Source: a virus. From it: a stretch of 64,000 bases of DNA. This document shows positions 5,133 to 57,788 of this stretch, one piece after another. The stretch covers positions 12,650-76,649 of the IMG/VR virus record IMGVR_UViG_3300045988_130114; one strand, 5' to 3'. The position numbers and the translations under genes were made by a program. The notes beneath the pieces were generated by a model. That model had not been told where the DNA came from. It made no database searches and worked only from the letters and a program-made list of their open reading frames with translations. Every line of letters starts with the position of its first letter. Positions within the stretch are counted from its first letter, which is position 1.

Positions 5133-5978
5133 ATGAAGATGCAATCTAAGATAGATTATTCCATAGCCTTACTTCGTAAATGCGAACAGATGGCACTTGA
5201 TTATGACCCGGAGGATGGCTTTTACTTAGCGTTCTCCGGTGGCAAGGATAGCCAAGTCCTTTATCACCTTGCGAAGATGGCAGGAGTAAAATTTAAGGCT
5301 CACATGAACCTTACGAGCATCGATCCACCCGAAGTTATCCGCTTTGTAAAACGGAACTACCCGGATGTGGAATTGATTAAACCAAAGATGTCTATCTATG
5401 ATATGGCTTTAAAAAAACACTTATTACCTACAAGAACAATCCGTTGGTGTTGCGCTGAATATAAAGAGATGTCCGGTGCTGGCAAGGTTACCTTGATTGG
5501 CATTAGAAAAGCAGAAAGCGTCCGGCGCTCTAAGCGTGAAGAGATTGAAATAAGCGGTCACAAATTTAGCGGCAACTTCGACCAATTCTCTGAACACAAA
5601 GAAAAGATGGTTACTTGCGTGGGAGGAAAGGATAAGATACTTGTTTCTCCGATAATTCACTGGACTGATAGGGACGTATGGCAGTTTTTGAATGGGAATA
5701 GCATAGAGCATTGCTCGTTGTATGATGAAGGCTATAAGCGCATCGGATGTATTCTCTGCCCAATGTCTAACTATAAGCAGAAGTTAAAAGATTATCAGCG
5801 CTTCCCCCATGTGAAACGTAAATGGATTCAGACCATACAAAAGTTGATTGATGCCGAATATGTCAACCACAACTTTACCGATGCAGAGTTTGGCTTTTAT
5901 TGGTGGATAAGCGATAAAGGTTTTGACCAATATTATGCAGACGAAGTACTGCAACAGAAAATAGAGTTTAACGTATAA
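5133..5978 (+). CDS. PAPS reductase-like protein (second paralogue)
   Basis: FSGGKDSQVLYHL PP-loop and C-terminal YKRIGCILCPM motif. Confidence 0.7.
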   Translation: MKMQSKIDYSIALLRKCEQMALDYDPEDGFYLAFSGGKDSQVLYHLAKMAGVKFKAHMNLTSIDPPEVIRFVKRNYPDVELIKPKMSIYDMALKKHLLPTRTIRWCCAEYKEMSGAGKVTLIGIRKAESVRRSKREEIEISGHKFSGNFDQFSEHKEKMVTCVGGKDKILVSPIIHWTDRDVWQFLNGNSIEHCSLYDEGYKRIGCILCPMSNYKQKLKDYQRFPHVKRKWIQTIQKLIDAEYVNHNFTDAEFGFYWWISDKGFDQYYADEVLQQKIEFNV

Positions 5979-8439: not shown

Positions 8440-8512
8440 GGTTGAATGGCGAAGTGATTAACGCAACGGTCCGCAAAACCGTTATTCGTGGGTTTGAATC
8501 CCACTTCAACCT
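8440..8512 (+). tRNA. tRNA-like gene, anticodon GCA (Cys), non-canonical C33 and TTTGAAT T-loop
   Basis: Hand fold: acceptor GGTTGAA/TTCAACC, anticodon stem ACGGT/ACCGT, loop CCGCAAA, T arm GTGGG-TTTGAAT-CCCAC. Confidence 0.55.
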
Positions 8513-8588
8513 CAAAGATAGAAATAACAACCGAAGTACAAGGCGATACTGTGGATTTTCTAATAAACGTTTTACAGACAGCCATATT

Positions 8589-8659
8589 GCGGAAATAGCT
8601 CATTGGTCAGAGCGTTGGCATTCCAGCCAAAGAGTGGGGTTCGATTCCCTGTTTCCGCT
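8589..8659 (+). tRNA. tRNA-like gene, Gly(UCC)-like with a 6-nt anticodon loop
   Basis: Hand fold: acceptor GCGGAAA/TTTCCGC, D arm GCTC-ATTGGTCA-GAGC, perfect anticodon stem TTGGC/GCCAA enclosing only ATTCCA, T loop TTCGATT. Confidence 0.5.
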
Positions 8660-8776
8660 CGAATGTCGTTCAAGCTGGCTGGTTGATTGGTATTATGGTA
8701 GATGTGCATAGTTCGATTTTATGCGTTACTCTGGTATCGGTCAATCTTACAGCGTGGGAAGACATGCAAATTTGTT

Positions 8777-9245: not shown

Positions 9246-10547
9246 ATGTTCCAAGGAACGACACCACCTGAAGTAAAACTGCTCCTTCAAGATATAATGA
9301 AAGGCGTAGAAAAGAAAGATGTTTTTATCGGATGTTCCGGTAATTTCACGACCGACAAAATTATGTCCAACATGGGATATACTGTACATTCCAATGATGT
9401 AAGCCTATATTCTAAGCTAATTTCTGATCTGCTGCTTGACACAAATACAGATATTGAAGTTGTAAATCCTGAATTACGTCTGGTTTTTGATACTTGGAAA
9501 GATACAAGATATAAAAATCTTGTTCAGGTAATGTTTGCCATGAGAGTATCAGGCTTTCATCAAAGAAAGAATGATTATCAGGAGGAAATGTTCAATTCGT
9601 TTATAGAGCAGGCTGACATTTATTATCACAATACCATATCGAAATTAGAAAAGGGTGCTTTGAATTTTAATATAAGCAGTTTCTTTTATGGCGATTTTTT
9701 TGACTTCCTAAAAAGTAAAAAAGGTAAGGGGATAGGTATTGCTTTTCCTCCCACTTATAAAGGAGGATATGAGAAGATGTTTAGCTATGTAGAAGATAGT
9801 TTTAGATATGTTCATGCTCCCTATAATGTATTTGACCCCAAAGAAGGTGGGGTGATGTTTAAATGTCTTCTTGAGAATGATGAAAACATCATCTATTCTG
9901 ATAGATATTTCCAGGAAATAAACGACTTCCTTGTTGGTAAGATAAACTTGGGGCCTGGTAAGAATCCGATATACACTTATTCTAGTGTAAAGCGGGATAA
10001 GCATTATTACATTGAACGTGATAAAAATATAAAGCCATCATGTATTCATATTTTGCCAATGGATTATGAATTTACAGATAGCACAGAAATATCAGCAAAG
10101 ATATGCCCAGTTAGTGATGTGAACTACTATAAAGCATTTTACATGGCAAATAAGGTTAACTATACAACTGGTGGGGACTTGGGATTGGTATTCATGGCTG
10201 ATGGAAAAGCGTTCGGTTTTTCTTCTTTTAGCAAAAAACTTTCTACTCTTGAGCAGATTTTTATGCGAAGCGATTTTGTTGTAAACTCAAATACTCAGAG
10301 ATTGAGTAAATTATTGATCATGCTTGTTAAGTCTCATAATGTAAGAATGCTGATTGCCCGAAAAATGGCTAACTACTACGATGGAGTGAAGACTACCGTG
10401 TACACAACAAGCCCAATTTCAATGAAATATAGAGGAGTATTTGATTTAGAACGCCGAGATGAAGGCAAGCTAATGTATTCTGCTAATTTTTTAGATGATT
10501 CATTAAAGGATTTATATAGATTATGGTTGAAAAAATACAAGAAGTGA
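9246..10547 (+). CDS. putative Dam/D12-like DNA adenine methyltransferase with C-terminal extension
   Basis: DVFIGCSGNFT...VHSNDVSLYSKLI (motif I region-like) and IAFPPTYKGGY (DPPY-like). The motif reading is weak and unsearched. Confidence 0.4.
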   Translation: MFQGTTPPEVKLLLQDIMKGVEKKDVFIGCSGNFTTDKIMSNMGYTVHSNDVSLYSKLISDLLLDTNTDIEVVNPELRLVFDTWKDTRYKNLVQVMFAMRVSGFHQRKNDYQEEMFNSFIEQADIYYHNTISKLEKGALNFNISSFFYGDFFDFLKSKKGKGIGIAFPPTYKGGYEKMFSYVEDSFRYVHAPYNVFDPKEGGVMFKCLLENDENIIYSDRYFQEINDFLVGKINLGPGKNPIYTYSSVKRDKHYYIERDKNIKPSCIHILPMDYEFTDSTEISAKICPVSDVNYYKAFYMANKVNYTTGGDLGLVFMADGKAFGFSSFSKKLSTLEQIFMRSDFVVNSNTQRLSKLLIMLVKSHNVRMLIARKMANYYDGVKTTVYTTSPISMKYRGVFDLERRDEGKLMYSANFLDDSLKDLYRLWLKKYKK

Positions 10548-11288: not shown

Positions 11289-11780
11289 ATGGCAGGGAGA
11301 GGTAGGCCCAAAATGGAGATTTCTCTTTATGATAAATATATAAAAGGGAAGGAAGATCTTATTATAGCAGACTGTAGGAATGGGGCTGACAATAAAGGTT
11401 TATGTGTGCGTCTTGGAATAGGACTTACTACGTTCAAAAGTATACTAAAGAAACATCCTGAAGTTATAGATTTGTTGAAGGAAGGTAAAGACGAAGCCGA
11501 CATGAAGGTAGAGAGTGCTCTATATAAACGAGCTATTGGCTATGATATTGAGGAAACTACAACTGAGGTGAAAATAGGAGAGGATGGATCTGGTCAAACG
11601 ACTGTGGTAAAGAAAACGAAAAAGCATGTCGCGGGAGATACAACAGCACAAATATTTTGGTTAAAAAATCGTAGACCAAATGAATGGAAAGATAAACAAG
11701 ATGTAAATGTTACTAATGATGATTGGGTAGATGCTTTAAAATCATTAACCAGTTCATATAAGAATGGTGACAAAGGATGA
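11289..11780 (+). CDS. terS: terminase small subunit
   Basis: Position directly before TerL. C-terminal TAQIFWLKNRRPNEWKD is typical of TerS families. N-terminal HTH-like region. Confidence 0.7.
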   Translation: MAGRGRPKMEISLYDKYIKGKEDLIIADCRNGADNKGLCVRLGIGLTTFKSILKKHPEVIDLLKEGKDEADMKVESALYKRAIGYDIEETTTEVKIGEDGSGQTTVVKKTKKHVAGDTTAQIFWLKNRRPNEWKDKQDVNVTNDDWVDALKSLTSSYKNGDKG

Positions 11781-13305
11781 AAAAAAGAAACTCATAAGTG
11801 AAATTATAGCGTATTGGTCGAAGGATTGGAATAAATTTGTCCGTGATGCATTATGCGCAAGATTAGATCGTGAGCAGCAAGCTATTATTGAGTCTGTCCA
11901 ACATAACCCCATGACTGCTGTTGCAAGTGGAACTGCTCGTGGAAAAGATTTTGTTGCGGCCTGTGCTTCGTTGTGTTTTATGTATCTTACTCCTAGATTT
12001 AATGAAAAAGGTGTGCTTGTTGGGAATACCAAGGTGGCCATGACAGCACCAACAGGGAGGCAAGTGAAAAATATTATGACTCCTGAAATCAGAAGGTTGA
12101 TTCGTGCAGCAAGGGCAAAGTTTCCTTTTTGTTGTCCAGGCAGATTGGTTGCTGATGACATAAGAACGGATTATGAAGAATGGTTTTTGACAGGATTTAA
12201 AGCAAATGACAACGCAACTGAATCATGGTCGGGATTTCATGCAGCAAATACCATGTTTGTTATCACGGAGGCATCAGGTATATCCGAAATTGTTTATAAT
12301 GCGATAGAAGGTAACTTACAGGGAAATTCTCGGATGCTCATAGTGTTTAATCCTAATATTACTACTGGATATGCATCTAGAGCCATGAAATCAGAACGTT
12401 TTGCTAAGTTTAGGCTTAGTTCTCTTAATGCGGAGAATGTGGTAAAAAAACAAGTTATAATTCCAGGTCAAGTAGATTATGAATGGGTAAAAGACAAAGT
12501 AATAAATTGGTGCTCTCCCATTCAGCAAACGGACTTTAATGAGGGAGAAGGCGATTTCAAATGGGAAGGTAGCCTATACCGACCTAATGATTTATTTCGA
12601 GTTAAGGTACTTGGTATGTTCCCAAAAGTTTCTGAAGATGTACTTATACCTTATGAATGGATAGAGATAGCAAACAGGAATTGGCAAGAATTACAAGCAA
12701 ACGGTTTCATTCCTGTTAAATCTTGCAAGTTAGGGGTTGACGTTGCCGGTATGGGACGAGACAATAGTGTGCTTTGTCCGAGATATGGAAACTATATTAC
12801 TCAATTTGAAGTGCATCAATCTGCTGGACGTGCGGATCACATGCATGTAGTAGGTATGACAATACCATATTTAAAGAAGAAGGGAGCAAAAGCATTTATT
12901 GATACGATAGGAGAGGGTGCAGGTGTCTATTCTCGTTTGTTGGAGGAAGAATTTACAAATGCTTTTTCATGTAAATATTCAGAAGGTGCGGATGGATTGC
13001 ATGATATTACCGGAGAATATGAATTTGCCAATATGCGAGCATATTTGTATTGGGCTTTGCGTGATTGGCTCAATCCTAAAAATGGATTTGGTGCAGCTTT
13101 ACCCCCATGTGATCAGTTGATGGAAGAAGCGACTGAAACTAAATGGAAGTTTCTTAGTAATGGAAAGATTATCATTGAGGCTAAAGAAGACATCAAAAAA
13201 CGTATCAAGCGTTCTCCTGACTATATGGATGCATTAGCGAATACATTCTATCCTAGGGATTACAGCTTTATTAGCGATGAAGAGCTGCTCAAAGATTTTT
13301 TGTAG
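11764..13305 (+). CDS. terL: terminase large subunit
   Basis: 513 aa, placed after TerS and before the head genes. ATPase-like N-terminus (VASGTARGKDF) and a nuclease-sized C-terminus. Confidence 0.8.
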   Translation: MVTKDEKKKLISEIIAYWSKDWNKFVRDALCARLDREQQAIIESVQHNPMTAVASGTARGKDFVAACASLCFMYLTPRFNEKGVLVGNTKVAMTAPTGRQVKNIMTPEIRRLIRAARAKFPFCCPGRLVADDIRTDYEEWFLTGFKANDNATESWSGFHAANTMFVITEASGISEIVYNAIEGNLQGNSRMLIVFNPNITTGYASRAMKSERFAKFRLSSLNAENVVKKQVIIPGQVDYEWVKDKVINWCSPIQQTDFNEGEGDFKWEGSLYRPNDLFRVKVLGMFPKVSEDVLIPYEWIEIANRNWQELQANGFIPVKSCKLGVDVAGMGRDNSVLCPRYGNYITQFEVHQSAGRADHMHVVGMTIPYLKKKGAKAFIDTIGEGAGVYSRLLEEEFTNAFSCKYSEGADGLHDITGEYEFANMRAYLYWALRDWLNPKNGFGAALPPCDQLMEEATETKWKFLSNGKIIIEAKEDIKKRIKRSPDYMDALANTFYPRDYSFISDEELLKDFL

Positions 13306-16752: not shown

Positions 16753-18153
16753 ATGGACGAAATTACCGCTATCTTAGACAATACCCGGCCCGTTGATAAT
16801 ATTATCAACGATTTAAAAGAAAAGTCTGTAACAGTCCCATCATGGGATAAACTTCTCAAAGACTACGAACCTACAGAGCATGAGATTGTATCTGACACAG
16901 TTACTCGTAAAGACAAAGTCCGTTCTAATGGAGATACAGAGAGAGCTTCGCGTATCTATATAGGGCTTGAAAAACTTCTCACCAAGCGAATGACTGAATT
17001 CATGTTCGCTATTCCGGTTAAACGTGTATATCATAACATAGAAGATAATGAAACCCGCCAAAGTATTGTGAAAGCAATTGAAGCGATATATAAGTATGCT
17101 CGTATTGATAGTGAAAATATTAAGCGAGGCAATGCTTACTTTGCTTCATGTGAAGTGTTCACCATTTGGTACACGGTCGAGAGTCCCAACACTCTATATG
17201 GCTTTAAAAGTAAATATAAGCTAAAATGCAAAACTTATTCACCAATGGACGGTGTTAGGTTATATCCTTTACTTGATGAACTTGGTGATATGATCGCAAT
17301 GTCTTTTGAGTACACTAGAAAGGTGAAAAATGAAGAAGTTACTTTCTTTGAAACATACACGTCAAACATCCATTATAAATGGAAACAACAGGGAAACGGC
17401 TGGGAATTAGTAAAATTAGAACCGGTCGTTATTATGAAAATCCCTGGAGTCTACACCTATCGTCCTGTTCCCATTTATCACGGTCTTTCCTATATCAGAA
17501 AAGAAATCGAATATACTCTGTCACGTAATAGCGATGTCATCGCATATAATTCCGCTCCTATCTTAAAAATAGCTGGTGGCATGAAAGGAGGAGAAGATAA
17601 AGGAGAAAGCCGTAGAGTTTACCGCGTAGAACAAAACGGGGATGTGTCTTATGTTTCATGGGCGCAATCTATCGAGGCGTTAAAATACCATGTAGACACC
17701 CTTGTTAAACTGTTCTGGTCACAATCCCAAATGCCGGATATTTCCTTTGAAAACATGAAGTCTCTTGGCAATATTGGATTTGATGCAAGGCAGACTTTAC
17801 TTACTGACGCTCATTTAAAGGTTGGAGATGAAAGTGGTGCATGGATAGAAACGTTTGAACGTGAATGTAGCGTAATCAGAGCTTTCTTGAAAATGATGAA
17901 TGTTTCTTGGAAAGATGAAGTAGATAATGTTGAGGTTGAGCATGTCATAACTCCGTTTATTCAAAATGATGAAAAGTCAGAAATAGAAAAGTGGGTTACG
18001 GCAAGTGGCGGAAAGGCAGTTGTCAGCCAATTAGAAGCCATCAAAAACTTAGGTATCTCTACTGATCCACAAGAAACTCTTTCCCAAATTCAAAAAGAAG
18101 ATGCAGAGGCTTCCAAAAGCAGGATAAGCAATATATTCGAACAATCGGAATAA
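16753..18153 (+). CDS. portal protein
   Basis: 466 aa. First gene of the head module and followed by a MuF-like protein. Confidence 0.7.
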   Translation: MDEITAILDNTRPVDNIINDLKEKSVTVPSWDKLLKDYEPTEHEIVSDTVTRKDKVRSNGDTERASRIYIGLEKLLTKRMTEFMFAIPVKRVYHNIEDNETRQSIVKAIEAIYKYARIDSENIKRGNAYFASCEVFTIWYTVESPNTLYGFKSKYKLKCKTYSPMDGVRLYPLLDELGDMIAMSFEYTRKVKNEEVTFFETYTSNIHYKWKQQGNGWELVKLEPVVIMKIPGVYTYRPVPIYHGLSYIRKEIEYTLSRNSDVIAYNSAPILKIAGGMKGGEDKGESRRVYRVEQNGDVSYVSWAQSIEALKYHVDTLVKLFWSQSQMPDISFENMKSLGNIGFDARQTLLTDAHLKVGDESGAWIETFERECSVIRAFLKMMNVSWKDEVDNVEVEHVITPFIQNDEKSEIEKWVTASGGKAVVSQLEAIKNLGISTDPQETLSQIQKEDAEASKSRISNIFEQSE

Positions 18154-19376: not shown

Positions 19377-20414
19377 ATGGCAAAGCCTAAGATTCCAAAT
19401 CAGAAAAAGAAGTATCAAGAACTCAACGAGAGATTAAGCAGATATGTATCCCTCGTTGAGCAAATATACGATACACTGAATTTGGAAGCAGCCAAGGCTG
19501 TTTCACGCACTCAATATTCCTCCGATAGTGATAAACCGTTTAAATGGTCTGACTATCCTCAAACTAAAAAACAAATTGACGACATACAAAGACATTTCGT
19601 AGAAGATATAAACGCAATTATCTATCGCGGTACGACCGAAGAATGGAAAAATAGTAATGAAGCACAGGATTTGATAGCAAACAGAGTATTAAAAGCATAT
19701 AACGCACAAGTTGATAGAGAGAAATATAAAGTCTTGTATCAAACAAATTCAGATGCTCTGAAAGCATTCCAGAGTCGAAAAGATAAAGGGCTCAATATAT
19801 CTGCAAAACTTTGGCAGCAATCTATGATCTACAAAGAAGAATTGGAGGCTGCAATCTCATGCGCTATTAAAAAAGGAACTAGTGCTGTTACGTTGAGTAA
19901 GCAAATAAGCAAGTATTTACTTAATTTTCCATCACTGCAAAAAGATTATAAAAGCAAATATGGAAGTGCGGAACATATACAAGATTGTGAGTACAGATCT
20001 ATTCGTTTAGCCCGTTCAGAAATAAACATGGCTTATAGAACAGCCGAAAATGAACGTTGGAAGCAGATGGATTTTGTCGTAGGATACGAAATAAAATTGA
20101 GCTCATCACATCATAGTCGTATGCCTCATGGAGACATTTGTGATACTCTTGCAGGTAAATATCCAAAAGATTTCACATGGACAGGATGGCACCCGAATGA
20201 CTTATGTTATAAAGTTCCTATCCTCAAAACAGAAGAAGAATTCTGGGAATGGGATGGGCGTAGTGATTCCACAACTGAAAGCGTGAATGAAGTCAAGGAT
20301 GTGCCGGATGCATTCAAACAGTGGGTTGGCACAAATTCGAAACGCATAGTAGACGCAAAGAAGAAAGGCACTTTGCCATATTTTTTAAAGGATAACCCGT
20401 TATATCTTAAATAA
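19377..20414 (+). CDS. head morphogenesis protein (Mu F / SPP1 gp7 family)
   Basis: IRLARSEINMAYRTAE and GWHPNDLCY motifs, with position after the portal. Confidence 0.8.
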   Translation: MAKPKIPNQKKKYQELNERLSRYVSLVEQIYDTLNLEAAKAVSRTQYSSDSDKPFKWSDYPQTKKQIDDIQRHFVEDINAIIYRGTTEEWKNSNEAQDLIANRVLKAYNAQVDREKYKVLYQTNSDALKAFQSRKDKGLNISAKLWQQSMIYKEELEAAISCAIKKGTSAVTLSKQISKYLLNFPSLQKDYKSKYGSAEHIQDCEYRSIRLARSEINMAYRTAENERWKQMDFVVGYEIKLSSSHHSRMPHGDICDTLAGKYPKDFTWTGWHPNDLCYKVPILKTEEEFWEWDGRSDSTTESVNEVKDVPDAFKQWVGTNSKRIVDAKKKGTLPYFLKDNPLYLK

Positions 20415-21828: not shown

Positions 21829-23166
21829 ATGAATGAATCATTATTTATTGAATTTGTAAGAAGAATATGGCCTAAATTGAGTCTATATGTGAAAGAAAAG
21901 ATCAATGGAACAAACAAGAATTTGACCTATCTTCACAAAACGATGCTTACTAAGGTATATTCTCCTGATCAAAAATGGGAAGGCACATCTGCTAATACTA
22001 CATATGTAGCTGCTGATATGGTAGCTATGGACTCTCCGCTTTCACCTAAAAAGCGAGATTCTATCGCACGGTCAAACGGGGAATTGCCTAAGATCGGAAT
22101 TAAAAAGATTCTAAGAGAGACTCAAATTAATGCCATCAACATTATGAGAGCTCATTTATCCAATGCCAGCACGGATGCAGCTAAGAAATCTGTCCTTAAC
22201 CGCATAATCACTCGCATGTTAGACGATGGAACGGCTTGCTCTATTGGTATTGATGAGAGAAATGAAGCAAATTTCCTTACAGGACTCTCCGATGGCATCA
22301 TCATTGTTGAGGGTGATGATGATAAAAATACTGGTATAGGTCTTCGTATTGATTATGGTTATTTGCCAGAACATAGCTTTGGTGTTGTTACTACTGGTGA
22401 AGTTACAGGAGATGATATTGAAAGAGTTATAAGTAAAGCTAACGATGATGATAACAGTATTTCAGTTATTATGCTGGCTTTATCTACATATAACAAAATG
22501 CGTCAGTCTCAATGGGCTAAAGAACTAGCTGCAAATTATCGAGGTCAAACCTTTGATAATGATACTAAGCTGCCTGTACCTACTTCTACATTATTTGATG
22601 AAGCGTTCTCTGACCAATATAACGGTATCTCATTCCTGAAAATTGACCGTTCAGTAACTTATGAAAAGAACGGTAAAAGGGTATCTTATAAACCGTGGAA
22701 TGCGAATAAATTGATATTTCTCCCTTCTGCTGATAATGTAGGTTCTTTTGTATGGGGAACTTTGGCTGAAGCGACTAATCCTGTTAATGGAGTTGAATAT
22801 ACTACCGTTGATGAATACAAGTTGATTAGCCGTTACTCTAAGACAGATCCGTTACAGGAATTTACAAACGGACAGGCTATTTGCTTACCGGTTATCGAAA
22901 ATGTAGATCAAATCTACTCTTTGGATATTCTAGAAGCTCAAGAGGTAAATACCACAGAAGAAGAAAAAGATACTTCTGACGTTAAGATTACAATCTGGGG
23001 AGCAACTTACAAAAAGCCGGAGTTTGTGACGGAATATAACAAGATTGCAGGCAAGAATCTGACTTCTACTGTTTCTGATGACAAACTCATTGCAGCAGTC
23101 AACAGATTGAACGATGCAGACGAAGAAGCATTGAAAAAGGCCGTTGAATCTCATAAAGCATCGTAA
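21829..23166 (+). CDS. major capsid protein
   Basis: 445 aa, placed after the scaffold and before the connector genes. Confidence 0.65.
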   Translation: MNESLFIEFVRRIWPKLSLYVKEKINGTNKNLTYLHKTMLTKVYSPDQKWEGTSANTTYVAADMVAMDSPLSPKKRDSIARSNGELPKIGIKKILRETQINAINIMRAHLSNASTDAAKKSVLNRIITRMLDDGTACSIGIDERNEANFLTGLSDGIIIVEGDDDKNTGIGLRIDYGYLPEHSFGVVTTGEVTGDDIERVISKANDDDNSISVIMLALSTYNKMRQSQWAKELAANYRGQTFDNDTKLPVPTSTLFDEAFSDQYNGISFLKIDRSVTYEKNGKRVSYKPWNANKLIFLPSADNVGSFVWGTLAEATNPVNGVEYTTVDEYKLISRYSKTDPLQEFTNGQAICLPVIENVDQIYSLDILEAQEVNTTEEEKDTSDVKITIWGATYKKPEFVTEYNKIAGKNLTSTVSDDKLIAAVNRLNDADEEALKKAVESHKAS

Positions 23167-25502: not shown

Positions 25503-26219
25503 ATGATTGAAGATCGAAAAATAATAGAAATGAATATTGCTGATACCATAATGGAAAGGCCATACGGTTTTCGGGTTAATAAGCGACATTTTTATCTATA
25601 TCCAATAACATTAGGTAAAACATATCTACTTTCAAGGCTCATTGAAAGCCTTGATATGAAGGCTGATATTATTAAAGCAAACCCATATATGGAAGCATTA
25701 AGATTATGCCAAGAAAAAAAAGAGACTGTTTGCCAGCTATTATCTTACCATACGCTCAACAAGAAAGAAGAACTATTTAATAACAGAATTGTAAATAGTA
25801 GATGCCAGTTTTTGAGGAAAAATCTTTCAAATGAGGAAATGGCGCAACTTCTCGTTATGGTTCTTACTAAAGATAACACGGATGAGTTTATCAAATATTT
25901 CGGAATTGACCGGGAACGTAAAGAACTAGCTAAAGTTTCAATGATAAAAAACAAGAAAGGCAATTCCATCACTTTTTGCGGTAAAAGCGTATTTGGTTCT
26001 CTAATATTACCAGCATGTGAAAAACTCAACATGACTCCACAGCAGATTGTATGGGAAATTAGTTTTTCATTTCTTCAAATGTTGATGGCAGATGCTATTA
26101 CTTCCGTATATCTTACTGACGAAGAAAAGAAAGAAGCCCGTATTTCCAATGACAGGACATTTGTCAATGCAGACGACCCGAAAAATATGGAAAAGATAAA
26201 AGCTATGAGATGGGACTAA
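25503..26219 (+). CDS. tail assembly chaperone-like protein
   Basis: 238 aa between the major tail and tape-measure genes. Called from position only. Confidence 0.3.
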   Translation: MIEDRKIIEMNIADTIMERPYGFRVNKRHFYLYPITLGKTYLLSRLIESLDMKADIIKANPYMEALRLCQEKKETVCQLLSYHTLNKKEELFNNRIVNSRCQFLRKNLSNEEMAQLLVMVLTKDNTDEFIKYFGIDRERKELAKVSMIKNKKGNSITFCGKSVFGSLILPACEKLNMTPQQIVWEISFSFLQMLMADAITSVYLTDEEKKEARISNDRTFVNADDPKNMEKIKAMRWD

Positions 26220-26261
26220 ATACGACAAATAGAACAAAAGCTAGAAATAAAAGGTAAAAAA

Positions 26262-26292
26262 ATCACGAGGGTTATACAAAAACTCCCGTGAT
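26262..26292 (-). terminator. terminator hairpin between convergent genes
   Basis: ATCACG(A)GGG / CTCCCGTGAT stem, flanked by A7 on one side so that it reads T7 on the minus strand. Confidence 0.5.
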
Positions 26293-26328
26293 TTATCGGT
26301 GAAATAGAACAATTATATAATCATCTAA

Positions 26329-27201
26329 TTAGGAAACTATTTCTCCAGTATCCTTATTTAATATCAGATGGTATTTCTTTTTTTCTCCTATTTTAGTAGT
26401 GGCTTCAATGTCTAATATTACGTTATCTCCATCTAATGAATATGTGGATTTGTTGACTCTTATCTCTTCATCGGTGATGGGGACCTGCCAAATTAGATAT
26501 TTATCATATCTATACATTGAAATGTCAACACACACAACCATATTGTCATAGATGTATACCATATTATTGTAAGATATAGGTATGTAATTATTCCTTTCAA
26601 TTTCTTTAACCCATCTTTCAGCGCCTGGATCATTATTCCCAATCGTCTGCTTTAAATCACTATCCAATACTCCAATTTCATAAATTCCTGTTCTTGCAGT
26701 TTTATAAATGGCAATGTATTCTCCATACCAATCTGCTATTGCTTCCGGATAGAAGATCGTTTCTTCAAAACCAGAATAATATTCTTTGTCAAAATATTCT
26801 TTTTCAACAACCTTCCCATCTTTTATTTTCAAGATAAATTTATGTGGGTGATAAGCTATATCTGCGTATAAACTTACCAATATATAGAGATAATCATCCT
26901 TTTTCAAGGCACTTTGAAGGAAACACCCTTTGACTATGTATTCTCTCTTATCTCCAAACCCAAGATCATGGGTATAATTTTCTGCTTTATCTTTGATGGT
27001 AAACACCTTGTTCCCTGATTCATCAATAGCCTCTATATAGTAATCTCCTTCAAAGATATAAGCTTGTAGTTTTAGATCATCTATCGGGATAGCACTATCG
27101 ATTTGGTATTTTGGAAGATCTGGTTCATCTATAGGACTTTCATTTGAACTACAACTTGTTAATAGAATTATTGCTATGATAAAAAATGAAATCTTCTTCA
27201 T
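26329..27201 (-). CDS. lipoprotein (moron; superinfection-exclusion candidate)
   Basis: Signal peptide with lipobox MKKISFFIIAIILLTSCSS. AT-rich and on the opposite strand, inside the tail operon. Confidence 0.6.
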   Translation of the reverse strand: MKKISFFIIAIILLTSCSSNESPIDEPDLPKYQIDSAIPIDDLKLQAYIFEGDYYIEAIDESGNKVFTIKDKAENYTHDLGFGDKREYIVKGCFLQSALKKDDYLYILVSLYADIAYHPHKFILKIKDGKVVEKEYFDKEYYSGFEETIFYPEAIADWYGEYIAIYKTARTGIYEIGVLDSDLKQTIGNNDPGAERWVKEIERNNYIPISYNNMVYIYDNMVVCVDISMYRYDKYLIWQVPITDEEIRVNKSTYSLDGDNVILDIEATTKIGEKKKYHLILNKDTGEIVS

Positions 27202-27214
27202 AATTTGTTGGTTA

Positions 27215-28336
27215 TTATTCTCTCATTGCTATTTTAAGCGATTCTTCAAGTCTATCCGCATATTTGAATATGTCATCTATGCTATCAATTTGAATCCAGT
27301 CGCAACTTTTGTAGTTATCTACTGGTATTCCTATTTGCTTCTTCCTAGTTCCAATAGAAATACGACATATCCAATACCATTGGCTGTTGTCTAAGCTTAT
27401 AACGAAGTAACTTTTATAGTCTGTATAGGTGATTCGTGAAGCATCTACATTACGTCTAAGTATGCTTCTCACAATGTTATAAGCATCCATTTCCTCTTGT
27501 GTAGTGACTATCCCTGCTTCCTTGTCCATATAAACTACTCCTTCAGGTAGTTTGTTTTCTGCATTTTCTTTGGGGAGATTAGCTAAATTACTAGAAAAAT
27601 TAGTTGTGTCTTCGACCTGTTCGTCATTTTTCATTGCTGTATTAAGCCTTTCAGCTATGATATCATTTATTACAATAGACATTGACTTTTTTACAAGTGG
27701 GGTAAACATTTCAACTACCTTTTGTGTGATTTGCCCAGTTGTATATATTTGTTTTGCAAAGAATCTAACAAAATCAGATGTAGGAGATTGTATTTCTTTG
27801 TTGAAAATTTCCTTTATTTCCGTTGTGTATTTTAATTCATTTGCTGTGCTAAGAACATTGTCTTCATTGTAATAAGATTTGTGGAACTTTTTTAGTTGTT
27901 CTATGTCTGCATCAGATAGATCTAGCATATTTACAACTAAGAATGGCCTTTCATCCATGATATTAACCTTCTCCAAATCAGTATAGAAACGGTATTCTAT
28001 GCCATTGGTGAGAACTCCAAAGCGAGACTTAGAAGCTACGAAATATTTTTGTAGTTGGGTGTCATGCAGATTCAAGTCCTGCTTGCAATGCTTACACTCT
28101 ATAAGAAGTATCGGGTTTTCGTCCTTCATTATAGCATAGTCAATCTTTTCTCCCTTTTTTCTGATTAAGTCACAGTCCATTTCCGGAACAACTTCGAAAG
28201 GATTAAAGACGTCATACCCTAAAGAAGCTATCAATGGCATTATGAAAGCATTTTTTGTGGCTTCTTCTGTAGATATGCTATCTTTTTGTTTTTTTATGCG
28301 GTCTGACAGTTGTAAAATTTGATCCTTGAAATCCAT
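27215..28336 (-). CDS. HsdR N-terminal-like PD-(D/E)xK nuclease-domain protein
   Basis: N-terminus ...TEEATKNAFIMPLIASLGYD...KIDYAIMKDENPILLIECKH...FGVLTNGIEYRFY resembles the type I restriction HsdR_N_2 domain. About 220 further residues are of unknown function. Confidence 0.55.
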   Translation of the reverse strand: MDFKDQILQLSDRIKKQKDSISTEEATKNAFIMPLIASLGYDVFNPFEVVPEMDCDLIRKKGEKIDYAIMKDENPILLIECKHCKQDLNLHDTQLQKYFVASKSRFGVLTNGIEYRFYTDLEKVNIMDERPFLVVNMLDLSDADIEQLKKFHKSYYNEDNVLSTANELKYTTEIKEIFNKEIQSPTSDFVRFFAKQIYTTGQITQKVVEMFTPLVKKSMSIVINDIIAERLNTAMKNDEQVEDTTNFSSNLANLPKENAENKLPEGVVYMDKEAGIVTTQEEMDAYNIVRSILRRNVDASRITYTDYKSYFVISLDNSQWYWICRISIGTRKKQIGIPVDNYKSCDWIQIDSIDDIFKYADRLEESLKIAMRE

Positions 28337-28442
28337 ATTTTTACAGTTTTACAATAACGTTTGTACAAATGTATTTTATATAACAATACAAACAAAATTA
28401 AAGATAAAAAAATAATGTATTAAATATGTTTTTCTTATAATG

Positions 28443-28497
28443 GTGGACTAACTGCGTCATTTTTGTTATCTTTGTATTGCCGTGTAATGTTGCACGG
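28443..28497 (+). promoter_or_regulatory. phage promoter-family copy 4 (TATCTTTG) plus 5' hairpin CCGTG-N8-CACGG
   Basis: gtggactaactgcgtcatttttgttatctttgtattg followed by ccgtgtaatgttgcacgg. Confidence 0.5.
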
Positions 28498-28520
28498 AAC
28501 TATTTCTATCGAAAAGACTT

Positions 28521-31500
28521 ATGGCTGGATTACACTTTGATATCACTGGCGATAACTCCAACTTCATACGCAAATTACATGAATGTGAGAATGGAGTAAG
28601 AAACACTTCTAAACAAATAGAACAAAGTGGGTTAAGTATTGAAGATCTATTTAACCGTATGACTAAAGCTGCTGCTGCTTTTGGAGCGGGATTTACAGCG
28701 AAAGAGTTGATTTCAAATATTGCTCAAGTTCGCGGTGAGTTTCAACAATTGGAAGTTGCATTTAAGACAATGCTTGGCAGTGAGGATAAGGCGAATGCCC
28801 TCATGCAGCAATTAGTAAAAACGGCTGCTACCACTCCTTTTGACCTTCAAGGCGTAGCAAATGGAGCTAAACAACTCCTTGCTTATGGGGAAAATGTAGA
28901 AAATGTCAATGACGATTTGATACGTTTGGGTAATATTGCTGCTGGTTTATCCCAACCTCTTGGAGATATCGTTTATCTTTATGGTACTACAATGACCCAA
29001 GGTCGTTTATATACACAAGACCTCAATCAGTTCACTGGTCGTGGTATACCTATGATTCGCGAACTAGCAAAGCAATTTAATGTTGCGGAAAATAAAGTTA
29101 AGGGACTTGTTGAAGCCGGAAAGGTTGGTTTCCCGGAAGTTCAAAAGGTTATCATGTCACTTACTAATGAGGGCGGAACGTTCTACAACCTTATGCAAGA
29201 ACAGTCAAAGACGATTACTGGACAAATCTCTAACATAGAAGATGCTATTGCTACCATGTTCAACGAGATAGGCAAGGCTAACGAGGGCATCATTAACGAT
29301 GCTTTATCTGGAGTTTCCTACCTAGTTGAAAACTATGAGAAAGTGGGAAGAGTACTGTTAGAAATCGTAGGAACCTATGGAGCATATCGCACCGCCCTAA
29401 TGGTTACAAGTTCTTTGCAAGCTTTACAAGCATCAGGGATTATGGCTTTGACAGCAAAAGAAGCTGCTCACTATGGATGGTTAGTCTTAACTAAAAAGGC
29501 TCAAGATGCTTTGAATTTATCAATGCTAAAGAACCCGTATGTATTAGCTGCAGCTGCTGTTGCTGGATTGGCTTATGGCATTTATAAACTTGCTACAGCA
29601 GAGACTGAAACAGAAAGAGCCGTTCGCAAAACAAACGAAGCACTTGAAGCACAAAAGAATCATTATGAAAGTATAAAGAACAAAGCAAGTGAGCTATCAA
29701 ATACTTTAAGTAATGAATCCAAATCCACAGAAGAACGTTTCATTGCATATCGCCAATTACAGCGTTTAATGCCTGAAGTATTCCAAAATATGGATTGGGA
29801 AACTGCAAAACGAAAGACAAATGCGGAGCTTATTAAACTTGAGACCGATGAACTTTTAAGGCGGCAACGTATTGGCTTAAAGACTAAGGTTGTAATGTCT
29901 CAACAAAAAATACAAGGTCTGGAAAACAGTATAATTAAAACTGATAATAGAGGAGGGTATACGGGGGCATTGAAAGAAGATTTATCTGCTGCAAGAAAAG
30001 AACTTGAAATTTATACTAAAGCTTTAGATGATTTTGAGAAAGCAGACGAACAAGCTAAAAAGGATGCTAACAAGCCTACTGTCTACAATAAGGAATATTG
30101 GGAAGGGAAGAAGAAAGAAGCTGAAGATGCCCGAAATACTTTGGACGTTTCTAAAAAGAATTCCGATGAATGGAATAAATATACTAAACAAATACAAGAA
30201 GCGCAAAAACAAATAGATAAGTATTCGGACTCTAAGACAATCAATAATTATAACTCCATCATAGACCAGCAAAAGAAAATCTCCGAACTATTAGACAAGC
30301 AAACAACCGAAAGGAAGCGCAAGGAACAAGATCTGGAGAATCAACTTACCCAGTCTCGTATTGACGCTATGGCAGAGGGAGAAGCCAAGATTCGTGCACA
30401 ACGTGAATTGGATAACAAGAAGGAGATACAAGACTTAGAACGTCAACGGGAAGATTATATCCGAACGGAGATCGAGCTTCAGCGAAAGGCTTTTGATGAA
30501 CAGGAAAATTTGCGGGCGAAGCAGACTAAGTACTATAAGAAGAGAACGTTTGATCCGTCTACAGTGAAAGTAGATACGGCCGCTTTTGATAAAATTTTGA
30601 ATAATACTATTCTACGACAAGATATTTATCCTTATCAGGAAGAAATGAAATACTGGAATGAATATCTTAAAGAATATGGTACATTTCAACAAAAAAAAGC
30701 TGCCATAAACGAAGAATATAACTTTAAAATCAGTGAAGCTACCACCAAGGGCGCTAAGAAGTCCTTGGAAAAAGAGAAAGAAAATAAACTGAAGGAAGTT
30801 AGCTTTGAAGAACTAAAATCATCTATCAATTTTGCAAACATATTCGGAAACCTTGATGCTCAGTCTACCGAGGCACTGGTTAAGATGCGTGATAACCTGA
30901 AAGAGGTTATAAATAAAGCAGCTAAAGATATAAAACCTACTGATCTTAAAGCGTTGCAAGATGCCTTCAAAGAAATTGATCTAAAAATAACAGTACGTAA
31001 TCCCTTGGGAGAACTGAAAAATAGTGCAGATAATTATCGTAATGCTACATCTGCGGTAATCAAGGCTCAAGAGGATTTAAATACTGTTATTCAGGGAGGA
31101 GAGGTAATAACTAAAGTATATACCGATGAGAACGGAAAATTAACTACTAGATTACTGACTCTTACCCAAGCAGAAAATAACTTGGCCGCTGCTCAATCTA
31201 ACAGACAACAAGCCTTGTCTAAGTTAACTCAAGCGGCAAATTCTATCGGGCAAAAAGGTATGGAGGTTGTAAATGCTGGCAATGACGTTGTTGGAATGCT
31301 TGAAAACTTTGGGGTAAAGGTTCCAGAAGCCATAAGTAAGACTTTGGATGGTATAGGGCAGGTAATGAGTGGGCTGGAACGAATAGACTTAACCAAACCT
31401 TTTAGTGCTATCACAGGTGCAGTTAGCGTTTTGGCAGGCGTTGGGAATACTATTGCCGGATTATTCGGTTTTGGTGGTGCTGACTATTCTCGTTACAATG

Positions 31501-32609
31501 AAATGGTTGATGAGTATAACAAGTTAAATGAAATATGGGATGAGTTAATTGATAAGAAAAAAGAATACATAGATATGTCTTATGGTGATGAAGCGCGTAA
31601 AGCAGGAGAGGAAGCCATAGACCTAATTGGAAAGAAACTACAAAGCAATATAGAACTAGGTATAGAAAGGCTAAATAGTGGTGCTTCTGCAGGTTCTCAT
31701 TCTATTGGAGTGAGAATTCGTAAAAGTATGAGCAATGAGGGGTGGAGACAATGGGATGAATTTGCTCAATCAATAGGGATAGATCCAGATGCCATTGGCG
31801 GAAGGTTAACAGGTTTGTTCAGTTTGACGGCAGAACAATTATCTAAATTGCAAGAGGATGCTCCTACTTTCTGGGCTAAATTGGATGACGATGTAAAGGG
31901 ATATTTGCAGGATATAATCGACTGCAACGATGAAATTGAAAATATGAAAGAGCAACTGAAAGAAACTATGACCGGTGTCTCTTTTGATTCTTTTTATGAC
32001 AATTTCGTGTCTACTTTATCCGACATGGATAAGGATAGTAAGGATTTTGCAGATGATTTTGAGAATTATCTTAAAAATGCAATACTTTCTAATCTTATAG
32101 CTAATAAGTATAGAAATAAGATAGAGGCCTTGTATGATGACTGGGCGAATAAATCTGACAGCAATGGAGATGGTATTTTTGATTTAACATCTTCAGAAGC
32201 GGATGAGTTGAGAAAAGCGCAACAAGCGTTGGCTGAAGAGATGATCGCAGAACGTGATGCTATGGCAGAAGTTTTTGGGTGGACATCTTCTGCTTCTTCT
32301 CAGGAATCTTCCAAGAAAGGATTTGCTACAATGTCGCAAGATTCTGCAGATGAGTTGAATGGTCGTTTCACAGCCCTTCAGATCGCTGGTGAAGAAATCA
32401 AGAATCAAATGATAGCTGTCGTTATGGGGATAAACTCTCTCACAAGTATATCGTCTGTTGGAAATGAAGTGCTCAACAACATTTTAACCCAGCATGTCAT
32501 AACAAATAGTTATTTAGATGATATTGCCAAATATACGAAATTGCTAAATGATATAAAGACTGATATATCCGAAGTAAGAATTAATACTAAAGGACTCTCT
32601 ACTCGCTAA
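28521..32609 (+). CDS. tail tape measure protein
   Basis: 1362 aa. N-terminal core ...TMLGSEDKANALMQQLVKTAATTPFDLQGVANGAKQLLAYG is typical of the TP901-type TMP core. Long coiled-coil. Confidence 0.9.
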   Translation: MAGLHFDITGDNSNFIRKLHECENGVRNTSKQIEQSGLSIEDLFNRMTKAAAAFGAGFTAKELISNIAQVRGEFQQLEVAFKTMLGSEDKANALMQQLVKTAATTPFDLQGVANGAKQLLAYGENVENVNDDLIRLGNIAAGLSQPLGDIVYLYGTTMTQGRLYTQDLNQFTGRGIPMIRELAKQFNVAENKVKGLVEAGKVGFPEVQKVIMSLTNEGGTFYNLMQEQSKTITGQISNIEDAIATMFNEIGKANEGIINDALSGVSYLVENYEKVGRVLLEIVGTYGAYRTALMVTSSLQALQASGIMALTAKEAAHYGWLVLTKKAQDALNLSMLKNPYVLAAAAVAGLAYGIYKLATAETETERAVRKTNEALEAQKNHYESIKNKASELSNTLSNESKSTEERFIAYRQLQRLMPEVFQNMDWETAKRKTNAELIKLETDELLRRQRIGLKTKVVMSQQKIQGLENSIIKTDNRGGYTGALKEDLSAARKELEIYTKALDDFEKADEQAKKDANKPTVYNKEYWEGKKKEAEDARNTLDVSKKNSDEWNKYTKQIQEAQKQIDKYSDSKTINNYNSIIDQQKKISELLDKQTTERKRKEQDLENQLTQSRIDAMAEGEAKIRAQRELDNKKEIQDLERQREDYIRTEIELQRKAFDEQENLRAKQTKYYKKRTFDPSTVKVDTAAFDKILNNTILRQDIYPYQEEMKYWNEYLKEYGTFQQKKAAINEEYNFKISEATTKGAKKSLEKEKENKLKEVSFEELKSSINFANIFGNLDAQSTEALVKMRDNLKEVINKAAKDIKPTDLKALQDAFKEIDLKITVRNPLGELKNSADNYRNATSAVIKAQEDLNTVIQGGEVITKVYTDENGKLTTRLLTLTQAENNLAAAQSNRQQALSKLTQAANSIGQKGMEVVNAGNDVVGMLENFGVKVPEAISKTLDGIGQVMSGLERIDLTKPFSAITGAVSVLAGVGNTIAGLFGFGGADYSRYNEMVDEYNKLNEIWDELIDKKKEYIDMSYGDEARKAGEEAIDLIGKKLQSNIELGIERLNSGASAGSHSIGVRIRKSMSNEGWRQWDEFAQSIGIDPDAIGGRLTGLFSLTAEQLSKLQEDAPTFWAKLDDDVKGYLQDIIDCNDEIENMKEQLKETMTGVSFDSFYDNFVSTLSDMDKDSKDFADDFENYLKNAILSNLIANKYRNKIEALYDDWANKSDSNGDGIFDLTSSEADELRKAQQALAEEMIAERDAMAEVFGWTSSASSQESSKKGFATMSQDSADELNGRFTALQIAGEEIKNQMIAVVMGINSLTSISSVGNEVLNNILTQHVITNSYLDDIAKYTKLLNDIKTDISEVRINTKGLSTR

Positions 32610-43399: not shown

Positions 43400-43852
43400 T
43401 TATACACTATTATTTATGTTCTTCCCTTTTTGCTTTTTATCATACTCTATGCATTTGCGGAGAATAAGCCCAAAAATGGCAAAAGGAGTGTAAAGAATCG
43501 CAGAAGCTTGAAGAAACGTAGTTAAAGCATGTTCATATCCTAGGATGTAATCTGAAGGAGATATAAGTAATTTAGACGATGTCACTAATATGGGAAGAAT
43601 TAGTATAAAGGCTTCTAGTTTGTATCTTCTTTTTGATATAGAAGAACATAGACATAACCATATAAAAGAAAAGTAAATGGATAATATAGAAGAAGTTGCC
43701 GTAAATATGATTTGCAAATATACATCGAGAGATTTAAACTCTGGTATATATAAATACAAAATAGAAAAGCATAGTGGCAGTTGTATGCAAAATCCTGTAA
43801 ATACATTCTTTTGTTCAGCGTTATAGCTTTTTATTAATTCTGAAATATCCAT
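43400..43852 (-). CDS. membrane protein (reverse-strand moron in the lysis cassette)
   Basis: 150 aa, about 4 TM segments, AT-rich. Confidence 0.45.
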   Translation of the reverse strand: MDISELIKSYNAEQKNVFTGFCIQLPLCFSILYLYIPEFKSLDVYLQIIFTATSSILSIYFSFIWLCLCSSISKRRYKLEAFILILPILVTSSKLLISPSDYILGYEHALTTFLQASAILYTPFAIFGLILRKCIEYDKKQKGKNINNSV

Positions 43853-55438: not shown

Positions 55439-55461
55439 AAGGCAGCTTATTAGGCTGCCTT
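55439..55461 (-). terminator. integrase terminator hairpin
   Basis: AAGGCAGC/GCTGCCTT stem, with a T-run after it on the minus strand. Confidence 0.55.
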
Positions 55462-56994: not shown

Positions 56995-57255
56995 TTATTC
57001 GTCAAACATCTCTCCCTTTCCTAAAATAATCCACTCGACAGATACTTTGTAATCTTTATGTAAATAAACGATCCACTCTGGCTTTAGTATATGTTTGTCG
57101 GGATAGAATTTTACACAGTTTACATTCCAACGATGCAAATTATTGTTTCTAGTGAAAGTTTGAAGCCCTCGTATTTTTTTTTGGGCTTTCAAGGTTTCTA
57201 TAGCTTCAAAGAAACGCTTGCTTATAGCGATTCCTTCTTCTGATATTATTGCCAT
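56995..57255 (-). CDS. HTH-like DNA-binding protein downstream of the repressor
   Basis: C-terminal VSVEWIILGKGEMFDE resembles the WLLxGxGxMF tail of XRE-type HTH domains. Internal ATG 57255. Confidence 0.45.
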   Translation of the reverse strand: MAIISEEGIAISKRFFEAIETLKAQKKIRGLQTFTRNNNLHRWNVNCVKFYPDKHILKPEWIVYLHKDYKVSVEWIILGKGEMFDE

Positions 57256-57256
57256 T

Positions 57257-57788
57257 TTATTTAATATTTTGGTTCTTTGTATCTTGCATTGAAATATCCG
57301 ACCCACTTACATGAACACATCTTGCAGTATTTTCCTGCTGGGCAAGAAATTTTTTATTTTGTTCCTGCATGGATTCGATTGTTCTTTGCTGTGACAACAC
57401 GGTTTCAGTAAGTCTTGATATCTGTTCAAAAACTTCTCTGCTCATAGAAATGGAATCACTTTTACCTTCCAGTTTTTGTTCTATTAGTTCTTCTAAAATC
57501 TTTTCTTTTAGCTTCTCTTTATTACTTCCAGAAATACCCTTTTCTATAATTCCAGCTACCGCATCGTATTTTTTAAACATAGGTACATCAGCACCAGATA
57601 ACCATCCTGTTGTGAGGTGATACTTATCCTCTATTATTTTTTTTGTATACATCCTTGAAAGCTGTAACTCCATTCTCTATTCTTGAATAGGTATTCTGAC
57701 CGACCTTAAGTAGATCAGCCATTTGCTGTTGCGTCATGTTCATGTGAATTCTGAACTGTTTCAGCCTGTTTTCTTCTCCATTATCCAT
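57257..57788 (-). CDS. CI/XRE-type repressor, reading frame interrupted at an A8 tract
   Basis: 57788-57624 encodes MDNGEENRLKQFRIHMNMTQQQMADLLKVGQNTYSRIENG...YKKNNRG*. The natural continuation (IIEDKYHLTTGWLSGADVPMF..., track ORF 57257..57673) lies in the +1 frame after the A8 tract (T8 on + strand, 57637-57644). Confidence 0.6.

Follow-up and report, generated by a model that had tools for sequence, protein, structure and literature searches.

Phage proteins of about 350-380 amino acids (aa) that consist of a stand-alone nuclease related to the N-terminal part of type I restriction HsdR subunits are grouped in PHROG 4225 and appear in NCBI records as 'type I restriction enzyme HsdR N-terminal domain-containing protein'. 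Members encoded by Porphyromonas, Fusobacterium, Streptococcus, Enterococcus, Clostridium, Corynebacterium and Klebsiella phages are equal in length and share domain order and catalytic residues; the family name is an annotation only. A further member is encoded in a stretch of 64,000 nucleotides (nt) from the IMG/VR virus record IMGVR_UViG_3300045988_130114 (positions 12,650 to 76,649), which was analysed as a whole and is referred to below as the window. It represents a temperate siphovirus genome or prophage with a putative Bacteroides-type host. The gene of this 373-aa nuclease (27215-28336, minus strand) is followed after 13 bp by that of a 290-aa lipoprotein (26329-27201, minus strand), and the two lie antisense between a chaperone-like gene and the tape measure gene. 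The evidence supports an autonomous antisense moron among the tail genes of a temperate siphovirus of Bacteroides, whose nuclease and lipoprotein appear, from comparison of sequences, to be separate and functionally independent add-ons.

The window protein shows no architectural difference from the other PHROG 4225 ('endonuclease') members; residues 1-370 align with profile positions 2-354 of 357 (E = 5.4e-128). With type I HsdR it shares the PD-(D/E)xK domain and the D...ExK and QxxxY motifs, but the superfamily 2 (SF2) helicase/translocase is absent from its 373 aa, no helicase match being found either in this protein or in 109 relatives. HsdM and HsdS are likewise missing from its neighbourhood, which is made up of the lipoprotein and tail genes. 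Since it has neither a motor domain nor HsdM/HsdS, the nuclease cannot work as a translocating type I enzyme. A profile built from 109 family sequences found no HsdR chain in the PDB. As in the solitary nucleases of type IV (Mrr-like) and type IIG, a single polypeptide combines a PD-(D/E)xK domain with an extra non-catalytic domain and has no cognate methylase. Some family members match the PADLOC models of type IIG N-terminal nucleases and one matches Mrr_cat. However, the similarity is confined to the nuclease domain and the C-terminal domain of the window protein matches no known modified-DNA reader; modification dependence of this nuclease would be pure inference.

The genomic logic of the family is also that of immunity-region morons such as lambda rexAB, P22 sieA/sieB and BstA, in that it lies directly downstream of a CI-type repressor in eight phages. 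There is no sequence relationship to these genes, one family member giving a marginal BstA match (E = 0.003), and the nuclease of the window lies in the tail module instead of beside the repressor. The T5 Llp, phi80/N15 Cor and Streptococcus TP-J34 Ltp proteins are, like the 290-aa protein, phage-borne and lipid-anchored in the envelope, their genes belonging to prophage-type expression units. They show no homology to it beyond the signal peptide, and the window lipoprotein is much larger. To our knowledge, the beta-propeller fold predicted for it is not common to the Llp, Cor and Ltp exclusion lipoproteins. Defence and moron hotspots are known from temperate phages and satellites, for example those of P2/P4 (PMC13586616). 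As in the P2/P4-type hotspots, unrelated accessory genes are exchanged here among similar elements at a fixed position between conserved flanks. The present locus differs in that what is exchanged is, almost without exception, genes for small exported proteins or lipoproteins and not recognisable defence systems, and in that the slot lies directly behind a conserved nuclease gene and shares its promoter. The locus combines known kinds of element, a prophage moron and an accessory-gene exchange hotspot. What is unusual is that nearly all of the exchanged genes encode small exported proteins and that the slot is tethered to a near-fixed, conserved nuclease.

Exchange at this slot is visible in sister prophages. 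DNA homology to those carrying other cassettes ends at about 27179-27217, a breakpoint that takes in the nuclease stop codon and the initial codons of the signal-peptide sequence. It begins again at about 26313-26324, past the lipoprotein stop codon but ahead of the terminator. These breakpoints define the lipoprotein open reading frame (ORF) as a discrete cassette (26314-27179, minus strand), swapped between conserved flanks and replaced in sister prophages by unrelated exported-protein genes. For example, nuclease variants of B. thetaiotaomicron type (95% identity) and P. dorei type (80%) occupy the same slot and are followed by an unrelated 165-aa secreted protein. In IMG/VR loci anchored on the nuclease, the downstream gene encodes lipoproteins of 105, 164, 166, 167, 231-234, 237, 242, 273 or 290 aa, or Sec-signal proteins of 165 and 228 aa. 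Clustering of 66 loci with the nuclease-chaperone arrangement gave nine mutually unrelated cassette families, and a tenth is found in locus L267. A Pfam scan of eight alternative cassettes recovered DUF4468 and BDI_0842 only.

A second, independent sample, anchored on the chaperone-like gene, provided 46 assessable slots. The nuclease is present in 45 of these, the sole empty one being that of locus L268. Its partner is the 165-aa secreted protein (sec165) in 22 slots, the 105-aa lipoprotein in 12, the 242-aa lipoprotein in four, the 290-aa lipoprotein in three and the 234-aa lipoprotein in one; three slots have no recognised partner. Of 33 loci anchored on the 290-aa lipoprotein family, eight have an HsdR_N gene within 4 kb, whereas 25 do not. 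In the nuclease-free loci the lipoprotein gene comes after other lipoprotein or secreted-protein genes, or lies within the immunity region. An earlier note on this DNA, made from the sequence alone, had proposed a two-gene module of nuclease and surface lipoprotein. Because co-occurrence fails in both surveys (three of 45 slots; 25 of 33 lipoprotein loci nuclease-free), the pair cannot be regarded as a system.

Two further observations concern these arrangements. Where the 290-aa family occurs in phages that lack the nuclease, another lipoprotein of similar size (283-288 aa, NGFSCNIDFNEENY) usually precedes it, giving tandem arrays of exported-protein genes (L036, L040, L044, L047, L048, L050 and L057-L059). 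The 67.7-kb contig IMGVR_UViG_3300045988_136686 carries two nuclease copies (L092 and L100), 68% and 67% identical to that of the window. The lipoproteins encoded behind the two copies are small and differ from each other (167 and 164 aa), and only one copy lies in the slot between chaperone and tape measure.

The assignment of the start of the 373-aa protein to an HsdR_N-like PD-(D/E)xK fold, made in the earlier note, was confirmed by Pfam (HSDR_N, PF04313, 54.7 bits against a cutoff of 25.1; HSDR_N_2, PF13588, 37.2 bits against 25), and all 109 family representatives likewise match HSDR_N or HSDR_N_2. The nuclease domain (aa 1-135; 27932-28336, minus strand) contains the catalytic E24/E25, K28, D66 and E80-x-K82 and, beyond them, Q94..Y98 and T110-N111-G112; the motifs quoted in the note correspond to D66, E80-x-K82 and T110-N111-G112. 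The catalytic motif is intact (D66, E80-C-K82), and its three residues, together with E24, are invariant in the 109 sequences as well as in 11 phage proteins from five phyla. Among 132 representatives less than 50% identical to one another, D66, E80, Y98, G112 and D128 are conserved in 100%, and K82, E24, K28 and Q94 in 99%.

The remainder of the protein comprises, on the same strand, a middle region that stands out in the conservation profile (aa 136-240; 27617-27931) and is probably helical, to go by a low-confidence model, then a variable, gap-rich linker (aa 241-272; 27521-27616; column identity 0.06-0.15, gaps 17-78%) and a conserved C-terminal domain (aa 273-373; 27218-27520) in which T279, E282, D306, Y310 and R325 are conserved. 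The middle and C-terminal parts match no Pfam family and no PDB chain, even with the 109-sequence profile; PDB sequence searches with the single protein and with the profile returned only a spectrin PH domain (E = 0.12) and Cas4 (E = 0.64). The idea that the C-terminal domain is a degenerate copy of the nuclease domain, both of which open with a T-(T)-E-E helix, was rejected (hhalign probability 0.3%). The C-terminal domain is a candidate DNA- or target-recognition module. The AlphaFold2 model of the nuclease, obtained from an alignment of 15 sequences 80-97% identical, had a predicted local distance difference test score (pLDDT) of 35 and was not used.

An exhaustive search over 1.84 billion cluster representatives retrieved 1,078 relatives at E<=1e-30, a number that rises to 4,958 at E<=1e-3. 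Almost all of them are 340-390 aa long and match from end to end. A minority match aa 1-245 only, their C-terminal module having been exchanged for other sequence. Within the prophage lineage the ratio of nonsynonymous to synonymous substitution rates (dN/dS) is 0.08-0.09, indicating purifying selection on the nuclease. Four of ten unusually long members (P0281, P0294, P0304 and P0309) have an N-terminal TerD domain fused to the complete nuclease module, and another long member (P0243) has a SeqA C-terminal-like tail that scores below threshold (20 bits). The TerD fusions hint at a role of the family in conflict systems.

The 290-aa protein begins with a signal peptide (aa 1-16) and a lipobox, LLTS-C17, which had been noticed from the start and is borne out by comparison: in MKKISFFIIAIILLTS-C17, the cysteine is invariant in 32 homologs. 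The Pfam model LPAM_1 remains below threshold (15.2 against 20), so that identification as a lipoprotein rests on the motif. The family is small (57 clusters, all from Bacteroides-type sources) and evolves under purifying selection (dN/dS 0.17-0.28). AlphaFold2 predicts an all-beta protein (pLDDT 86, predicted template modelling score 0.81), and every significant Foldseek match to the model is a beta-propeller, at template modelling (TM) scores of 0.3-0.45 only. The mature protein is thus predicted to be a generic beta-propeller, the fold class being clear and no specific family nameable; assignment to a specific fold family was rejected, since the similarity is to propellers in general. A tblastn search found no match to the lipoprotein in catalogued phages, and no profile library gave a match beyond a weak signal-peptide match to Cor; no PADLOC model matched. 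A Cor-like exclusion protein was rejected as an identification, the PHROG 1119 match covering the signal peptide only (aa 1-27, E = 0.01).

Both ORFs are real genes, as shown by their hundreds of homologs and the purifying selection seen in dN/dS. As first described, they run on the minus strand amid structural genes that are all on the plus strand. On their own strand the order is promoter, nuclease gene, 13 bp, lipoprotein gene and terminator, which would make them one transcription unit with predicted signals at both ends. The 184-bp intergenic region 28337-28520 (GC 0.245), previously proposed to hold divergent promoters, contains on the minus strand a full consensus match of the Bacteroidetes sigma-ABfr type, TTTG-N19-TAcaTTTG (28366-28396), about 30 nt upstream of the nuclease ATG, which probably acts as the promoter of the cassette. 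Ten full consensus matches were observed in the 64 kb against four expected, and none of 100 shuffles reached ten. On the plus strand, a -7 box, TAtcTTTG (28467-28474), lies ahead of the tape measure start and is followed by a 7-bp GC-rich hairpin, CCGTGTAATGTTGCACGG (28480-28497), 24 nt upstream of the start codon. The box and hairpin could possibly serve re-initiation or regulation of tail transcription past the insertion.

At the other end, a terminator hairpin had been placed at 26262-26292. The minus-strand RNA indeed has a candidate intrinsic terminator there (26253-26294), made up of an interrupted stem of 13 bp (about 26260-26294) and a U7 tract (26253-26259). Its score is modest (minimum free energy -14.7 kcal/mol, z = -1.95), and in the plus-strand reading just a short T-run comes after the hairpin. 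Sister prophages retain the terminator sequence, which flanks the cassette on its downstream side. The right flank is indeed the tape measure gene (28521-32609, plus strand; 1362 aa; Pfam TMP_3, E = 1e-24). The left-hand neighbour, called a tail chaperone in the earlier note, is a 238-aa gene (25503-26219, plus strand) that is chaperone-like by position only and matches PHROG 11996, a family of unknown function among the PHROG profiles.

The description of the island as AT-rich holds in part. Its GC content is 0.322 against a window mean of 0.379, in the 1st percentile among 2.3-kb windows. However, the distinctly AT-rich parts are the lipoprotein gene and the intergenic region only: GC at third codon positions is 0.318 in the nuclease gene, about equal to the 0.313 of the tape measure gene, and lower, 0.271, in the lipoprotein gene. 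The moron placement suggested at the outset is supported. Predicted promoter and terminator, an orientation independent of the flanking operon, the lower GC and absence from a relative all point to an autonomous unit. In that relative, L268, the chaperone homolog and the tape measure gene are 61 bp apart with nothing between them; it is a distant relative, with a chaperone 52% identical.

Outside this lineage the nuclease is sporadic in phages and common in bacteria. Among 50,697 catalogued phage records, 19 encode it, with hosts in the Bacteroidota, Fusobacteriota, Bacillota, Actinomycetota and Pseudomonadota. In eight inspected contexts (Fusobacterium FNU_1P, Acetoanaerobium ANDSL2_ph1, Streptococcus IPP25, Enterococcus EG-TP1, Corynebacterium Juicebox, Klebsiella KpF5, Clostridium CWou-2020a and an E. 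coli STEC379 prophage) it is directly downstream of, and co-directional with, a CI-type repressor, sometimes with an ImmA protease, and usually lies en route to the integrase. Gene order is identical in a ninth phage, Lacticaseibacillus P7.1, whose record labels every gene hypothetical. In Porphyromonas phages the nuclease adjoins HicAB a few genes ahead of the tape measure, and in E. coli C3 it is inserted in the baseplate module. In Bacteroidales phages that are more distant (57-62% identity), the next gene after it encodes a small homolog of an ORF of the window, orf56995, which suggests that in those phages it is tied to the lysogeny module. In the window, orf56995 (56995-57306, minus strand) contains ISKRFFEAIETLKAQKKIRG, adjoins the integrase gene and belongs to no Pfam family; its homologs directly downstream of HsdR_N genes are those of L109, L112, L117 and L118.

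At least 594 GTDB species representatives have a homolog. In 77 of these genomes, the 130 genes immediately beside it represent 153 Pfam families; no partner recurs, and the 25 most frequent families include no methyltransferase. The nuclease therefore appears, from its genomic contexts, to be a solitary mobile single-gene module that temperate phages have repeatedly placed where prophage-expressed genes lie. Its repeated position after the repressor points to selection for lysogenic expression. In six phyla the gene lies right behind the repressor or within tail modules, which are typical places of lysogen-expressed morons.

Taken together, we lean slightly towards a moron operon of functionally independent genes, with a single-protein nuclease directed against foreign DNA and a swappable lipoprotein that alters the envelope. 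In this proposal the unit would have been inserted antisense between the chaperone-like gene and the tape measure gene. The nuclease would be the fixed resident of the locus, and the position behind it a recombination-prone landing pad sharing promoter and terminator. The nuclease is built from an HsdR_N-type catalytic domain, the middle region and a C-terminal domain that may recognise the substrate. The chances seem about even that it acts in the lysogen on incoming DNA as a one-protein restriction-like or abortive enzyme. Being solitary, it must either target something that host DNA does not have, for instance a modification, or stay inactive until triggered; it could accordingly be a modification-dependent (type IV-like) restriction enzyme or a triggered nuclease of abortive type.

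The present occupant of the slot would be an outer-membrane-anchored beta-propeller lipoprotein, perhaps facing the periplasm. Host lipoproteins alter phage susceptibility in B. thetaiotaomicron (10.1101/521070). Most likely the phage lipoprotein alters the lysogen envelope, either by receptor masking or injection block (superinfection exclusion) or with an effect on host fitness, two roles which are not distinguishable from these data. The comparisons establish the anatomy of the locus, the family membership and conserved active site of the nuclease, purifying selection, the independence of the two genes, the exchange of cassettes and the recurrent positions in genomes. From these we infer expression in the lysogen, cleavage of DNA by the nuclease, a possible anti-phage role of either product and the likely orientation of the lipoprotein; an anti-phage function is plausible for either gene in view of its position. 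A bolder version is possible but doubtful: PHROG 4225 could be a new and very widespread single-protein prophage immunity nuclease, present in at least six phyla, whose C-terminal domain reads foreign (e.g. modified) DNA. In the commonest gut Bacteroides/Phocaeicola prophages it would anchor a two-layer immunity locus, with the slot as a rapidly diversifying hotspot of phage-excluding envelope proteins.

Several observations weigh against a defensive moron operon. The nuclease occupies nearly every slot of the lineage (45 of 46) and diverges roughly in step with it, a pattern equally compatible with a function for the phage itself. In free-living Bacteroidota it is often found amid housekeeping genes, not in prophages or defence islands, and a non-defence cellular role is therefore possible. 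Given the pLDDT of 35, the role of the C-terminal domain is a guess. PADLOC-DB v2.0.0 gave as sole match of the nuclease mad2 (20.2 bits, aa 61-151), and across the family PADLOC detects only similarity of the nuclease domain to type IIG and type I models; neither gene of the window corresponds to a named defence system of PADLOC, in keeping with the earlier note. A literature search found no tested function described for this nuclease family, and nothing relevant was found in the literature on 'HsdR-like' genes of phage-inducible chromosomal islands (PICI) or on lysogen expression in BV01/Salyersviridae. Foldseek gave no fold-level match of the lipoprotein to any known exclusion protein. Finally, the surface-export signal defined experimentally in B. 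thetaiotaomicron is CS(D/E)2 (PMC6222051). It is absent at positions +2 to +4 of the lipoprotein, which reads C-S-S-N-E-S (family consensus C-S-S-S-E-D), acidic residues starting only at +5. The surface location assumed for it in the earlier note is consequently not established, and lack of the canonical motif suggests that it may face the periplasm. Several alternative cassettes of the slot do carry CS(D/E)2, for example one starting C-S-D-D-N-E.

One alternative is that the pair forms a single functional defence system, in which the envelope lipoprotein senses or blocks infection, the nuclease is the effector and the variable exported protein is an exchangeable specificity module. The genes are predicted to be co-transcribed across a 13-bp spacer, the order of nuclease then exported protein is kept even in L267, where the chaperone is only 48% identical, and nearly every cassette of the slot is exported. 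Such a system is nevertheless very unlikely, given that the cassette families, at least ten, have no detectable mutual homology, that outside the lineage the nuclease lies in repressor operons or among housekeeping genes with no exported neighbour, that 25 of 33 lipoprotein loci lack it, and that a nuclease in the cytoplasm has no evident way to communicate with a lipoprotein located past the inner membrane. It is rather unlikely, too, that the nuclease serves the phage itself, by degrading host or competitor DNA in lytic growth, by processing DNA in recombination or packaging, or by supplying the restriction activity of a modify-and-cut pair with phage DNA-modification enzymes. It lies on the opposite strand within the late operon, under its own host-type promoter, and eight other phages have it in the repressor/integrase transcription unit and not in early or late lytic operons; no methyltransferase or modification neighbour recurs in the 77 genomes, and the gene is common in bacterial chromosomes outside prophages. 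Its near-fixation under strong purifying selection would however suit such a function, and an amidoligase is encoded close to the nuclease copy of the Porphyromonas phage. Moreover, genes for proteins with a 3'-phosphoadenosine-5'-phosphosulfate (PAPS) reductase domain and Dam-like/GNAT genes are typical of phage DNA modification, and the window has both: 5133-5978 codes for a PAPS-reductase-like protein, and 9246-10547 for a Dam-like/GNAT fusion in which 'phage DNA adenine methylase-like domain 1' is joined to a phage GNAT-like domain (PF22555 + PF22559). A link between these genes and the nuclease is possible but unsupported.

A selfish origin has also to be considered. Free-standing homing endonucleases resemble the present protein in their layout of nuclease, linker and small C-terminal domain, and homing genes typically show presence/absence among close relatives. 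The nuclease could be a homing-type enzyme of no benefit to phage or host, and the slot behind it a collector of hitch-hiking morons. That it interrupts runs of conserved structural genes, in the window as well as in Porphyromonas phages and E. coli C3, would agree with this, as would the sporadic occurrence in catalogued phages (19 of 50,697) and the heterogeneous neighbourhoods in bacterial chromosomes. However, there is no presence/absence polymorphism, 45 of 46 slots being occupied with a divergence (55-98%) that roughly parallels that of the flanking gene; the gene is repeatedly placed after the repressor in unrelated temperate phages, and a dN/dS that stays at about 0.09 over long divergence is an argument for a function that has been maintained. 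We consider homing quite unlikely. To a general DNA-repair or housekeeping nuclease picked up by prophages, together with a lipoprotein for host fitness (nutrient binding, colonisation), we likewise give a slim chance. The homologs in at least 594 species-representative genomes, often beside NadA, LeuRS or FtsW, speak for it, and the beta-propeller lipoproteins of Bacteroides include nutrient binders, one of which, BtuK1, is among the Foldseek matches (TM 0.32). Yet the distribution is patchy with no conserved synteny, TerD fusions and placement in prophage immunity regions are typical of conflict systems, and the fold match to nutrient binders, at a TM of about 0.3, is non-specific. The preferred reading remains that of a moron operon with independent genes.

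The rest of the window conforms to a temperate siphovirus. The plus strand encodes the large terminase (11764-13305), an SPP1-type portal (16753-18153) and the major capsid protein (21829-23166), as well as replication genes and distal tail/fibre genes, and a Bacteroidetes-type tyrosine integrase is encoded on the minus strand (55461-56711). A second isolated minus-strand ORF within the plus-strand late region (43400-43852) is a candidate moron; its 150-aa hydrophobic product, seemingly a multi-pass membrane protein, has no Pfam match. ARAGORN detects a tRNA-Cys (GCA) gene (8440-8513) and, 75 nt beyond it, a second tRNA-like gene (8589-8660) with an abnormal two-base anticodon, 'tc'. The 345-aa head-morphogenesis protein (19377-20414) also matches a PHROG named 'Bxa ADP-ribosyl transferase', but the match is limited to profile positions 242-375 of 869, which head-morphogenesis PHROGs also match. 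No ADP-ribosyltransferase domain was identified in this protein, Pfam not being among the profiles used.

The prophage lineage is very common in gut metagenomes and in genomes of human-gut Bacteroides and Phocaeicola; individual variants of its proteins occur on 400-850 contigs. A megablast search of the locus gave no match in catalogued phages, in which the only relatives of the lineage are the unannotated faecal metagenome fragments MT835773 and MT836345. Even if its genes proved to have no phenotype, the locus would be a clean example of modular moron exchange. If the nuclease is a defence enzyme, temperate phages of at least six phyla would carry one more compact system made up of a single gene, which would help to account for competition between phages in the gut. 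The slot amounts to a natural experiment: ten or more unrelated exported proteins have been selected at the same position. This points to lysogenic conversion of the Bacteroides envelope, which would bear on phage susceptibility, on the content of outer-membrane vesicles and, possibly, on interaction with the host.

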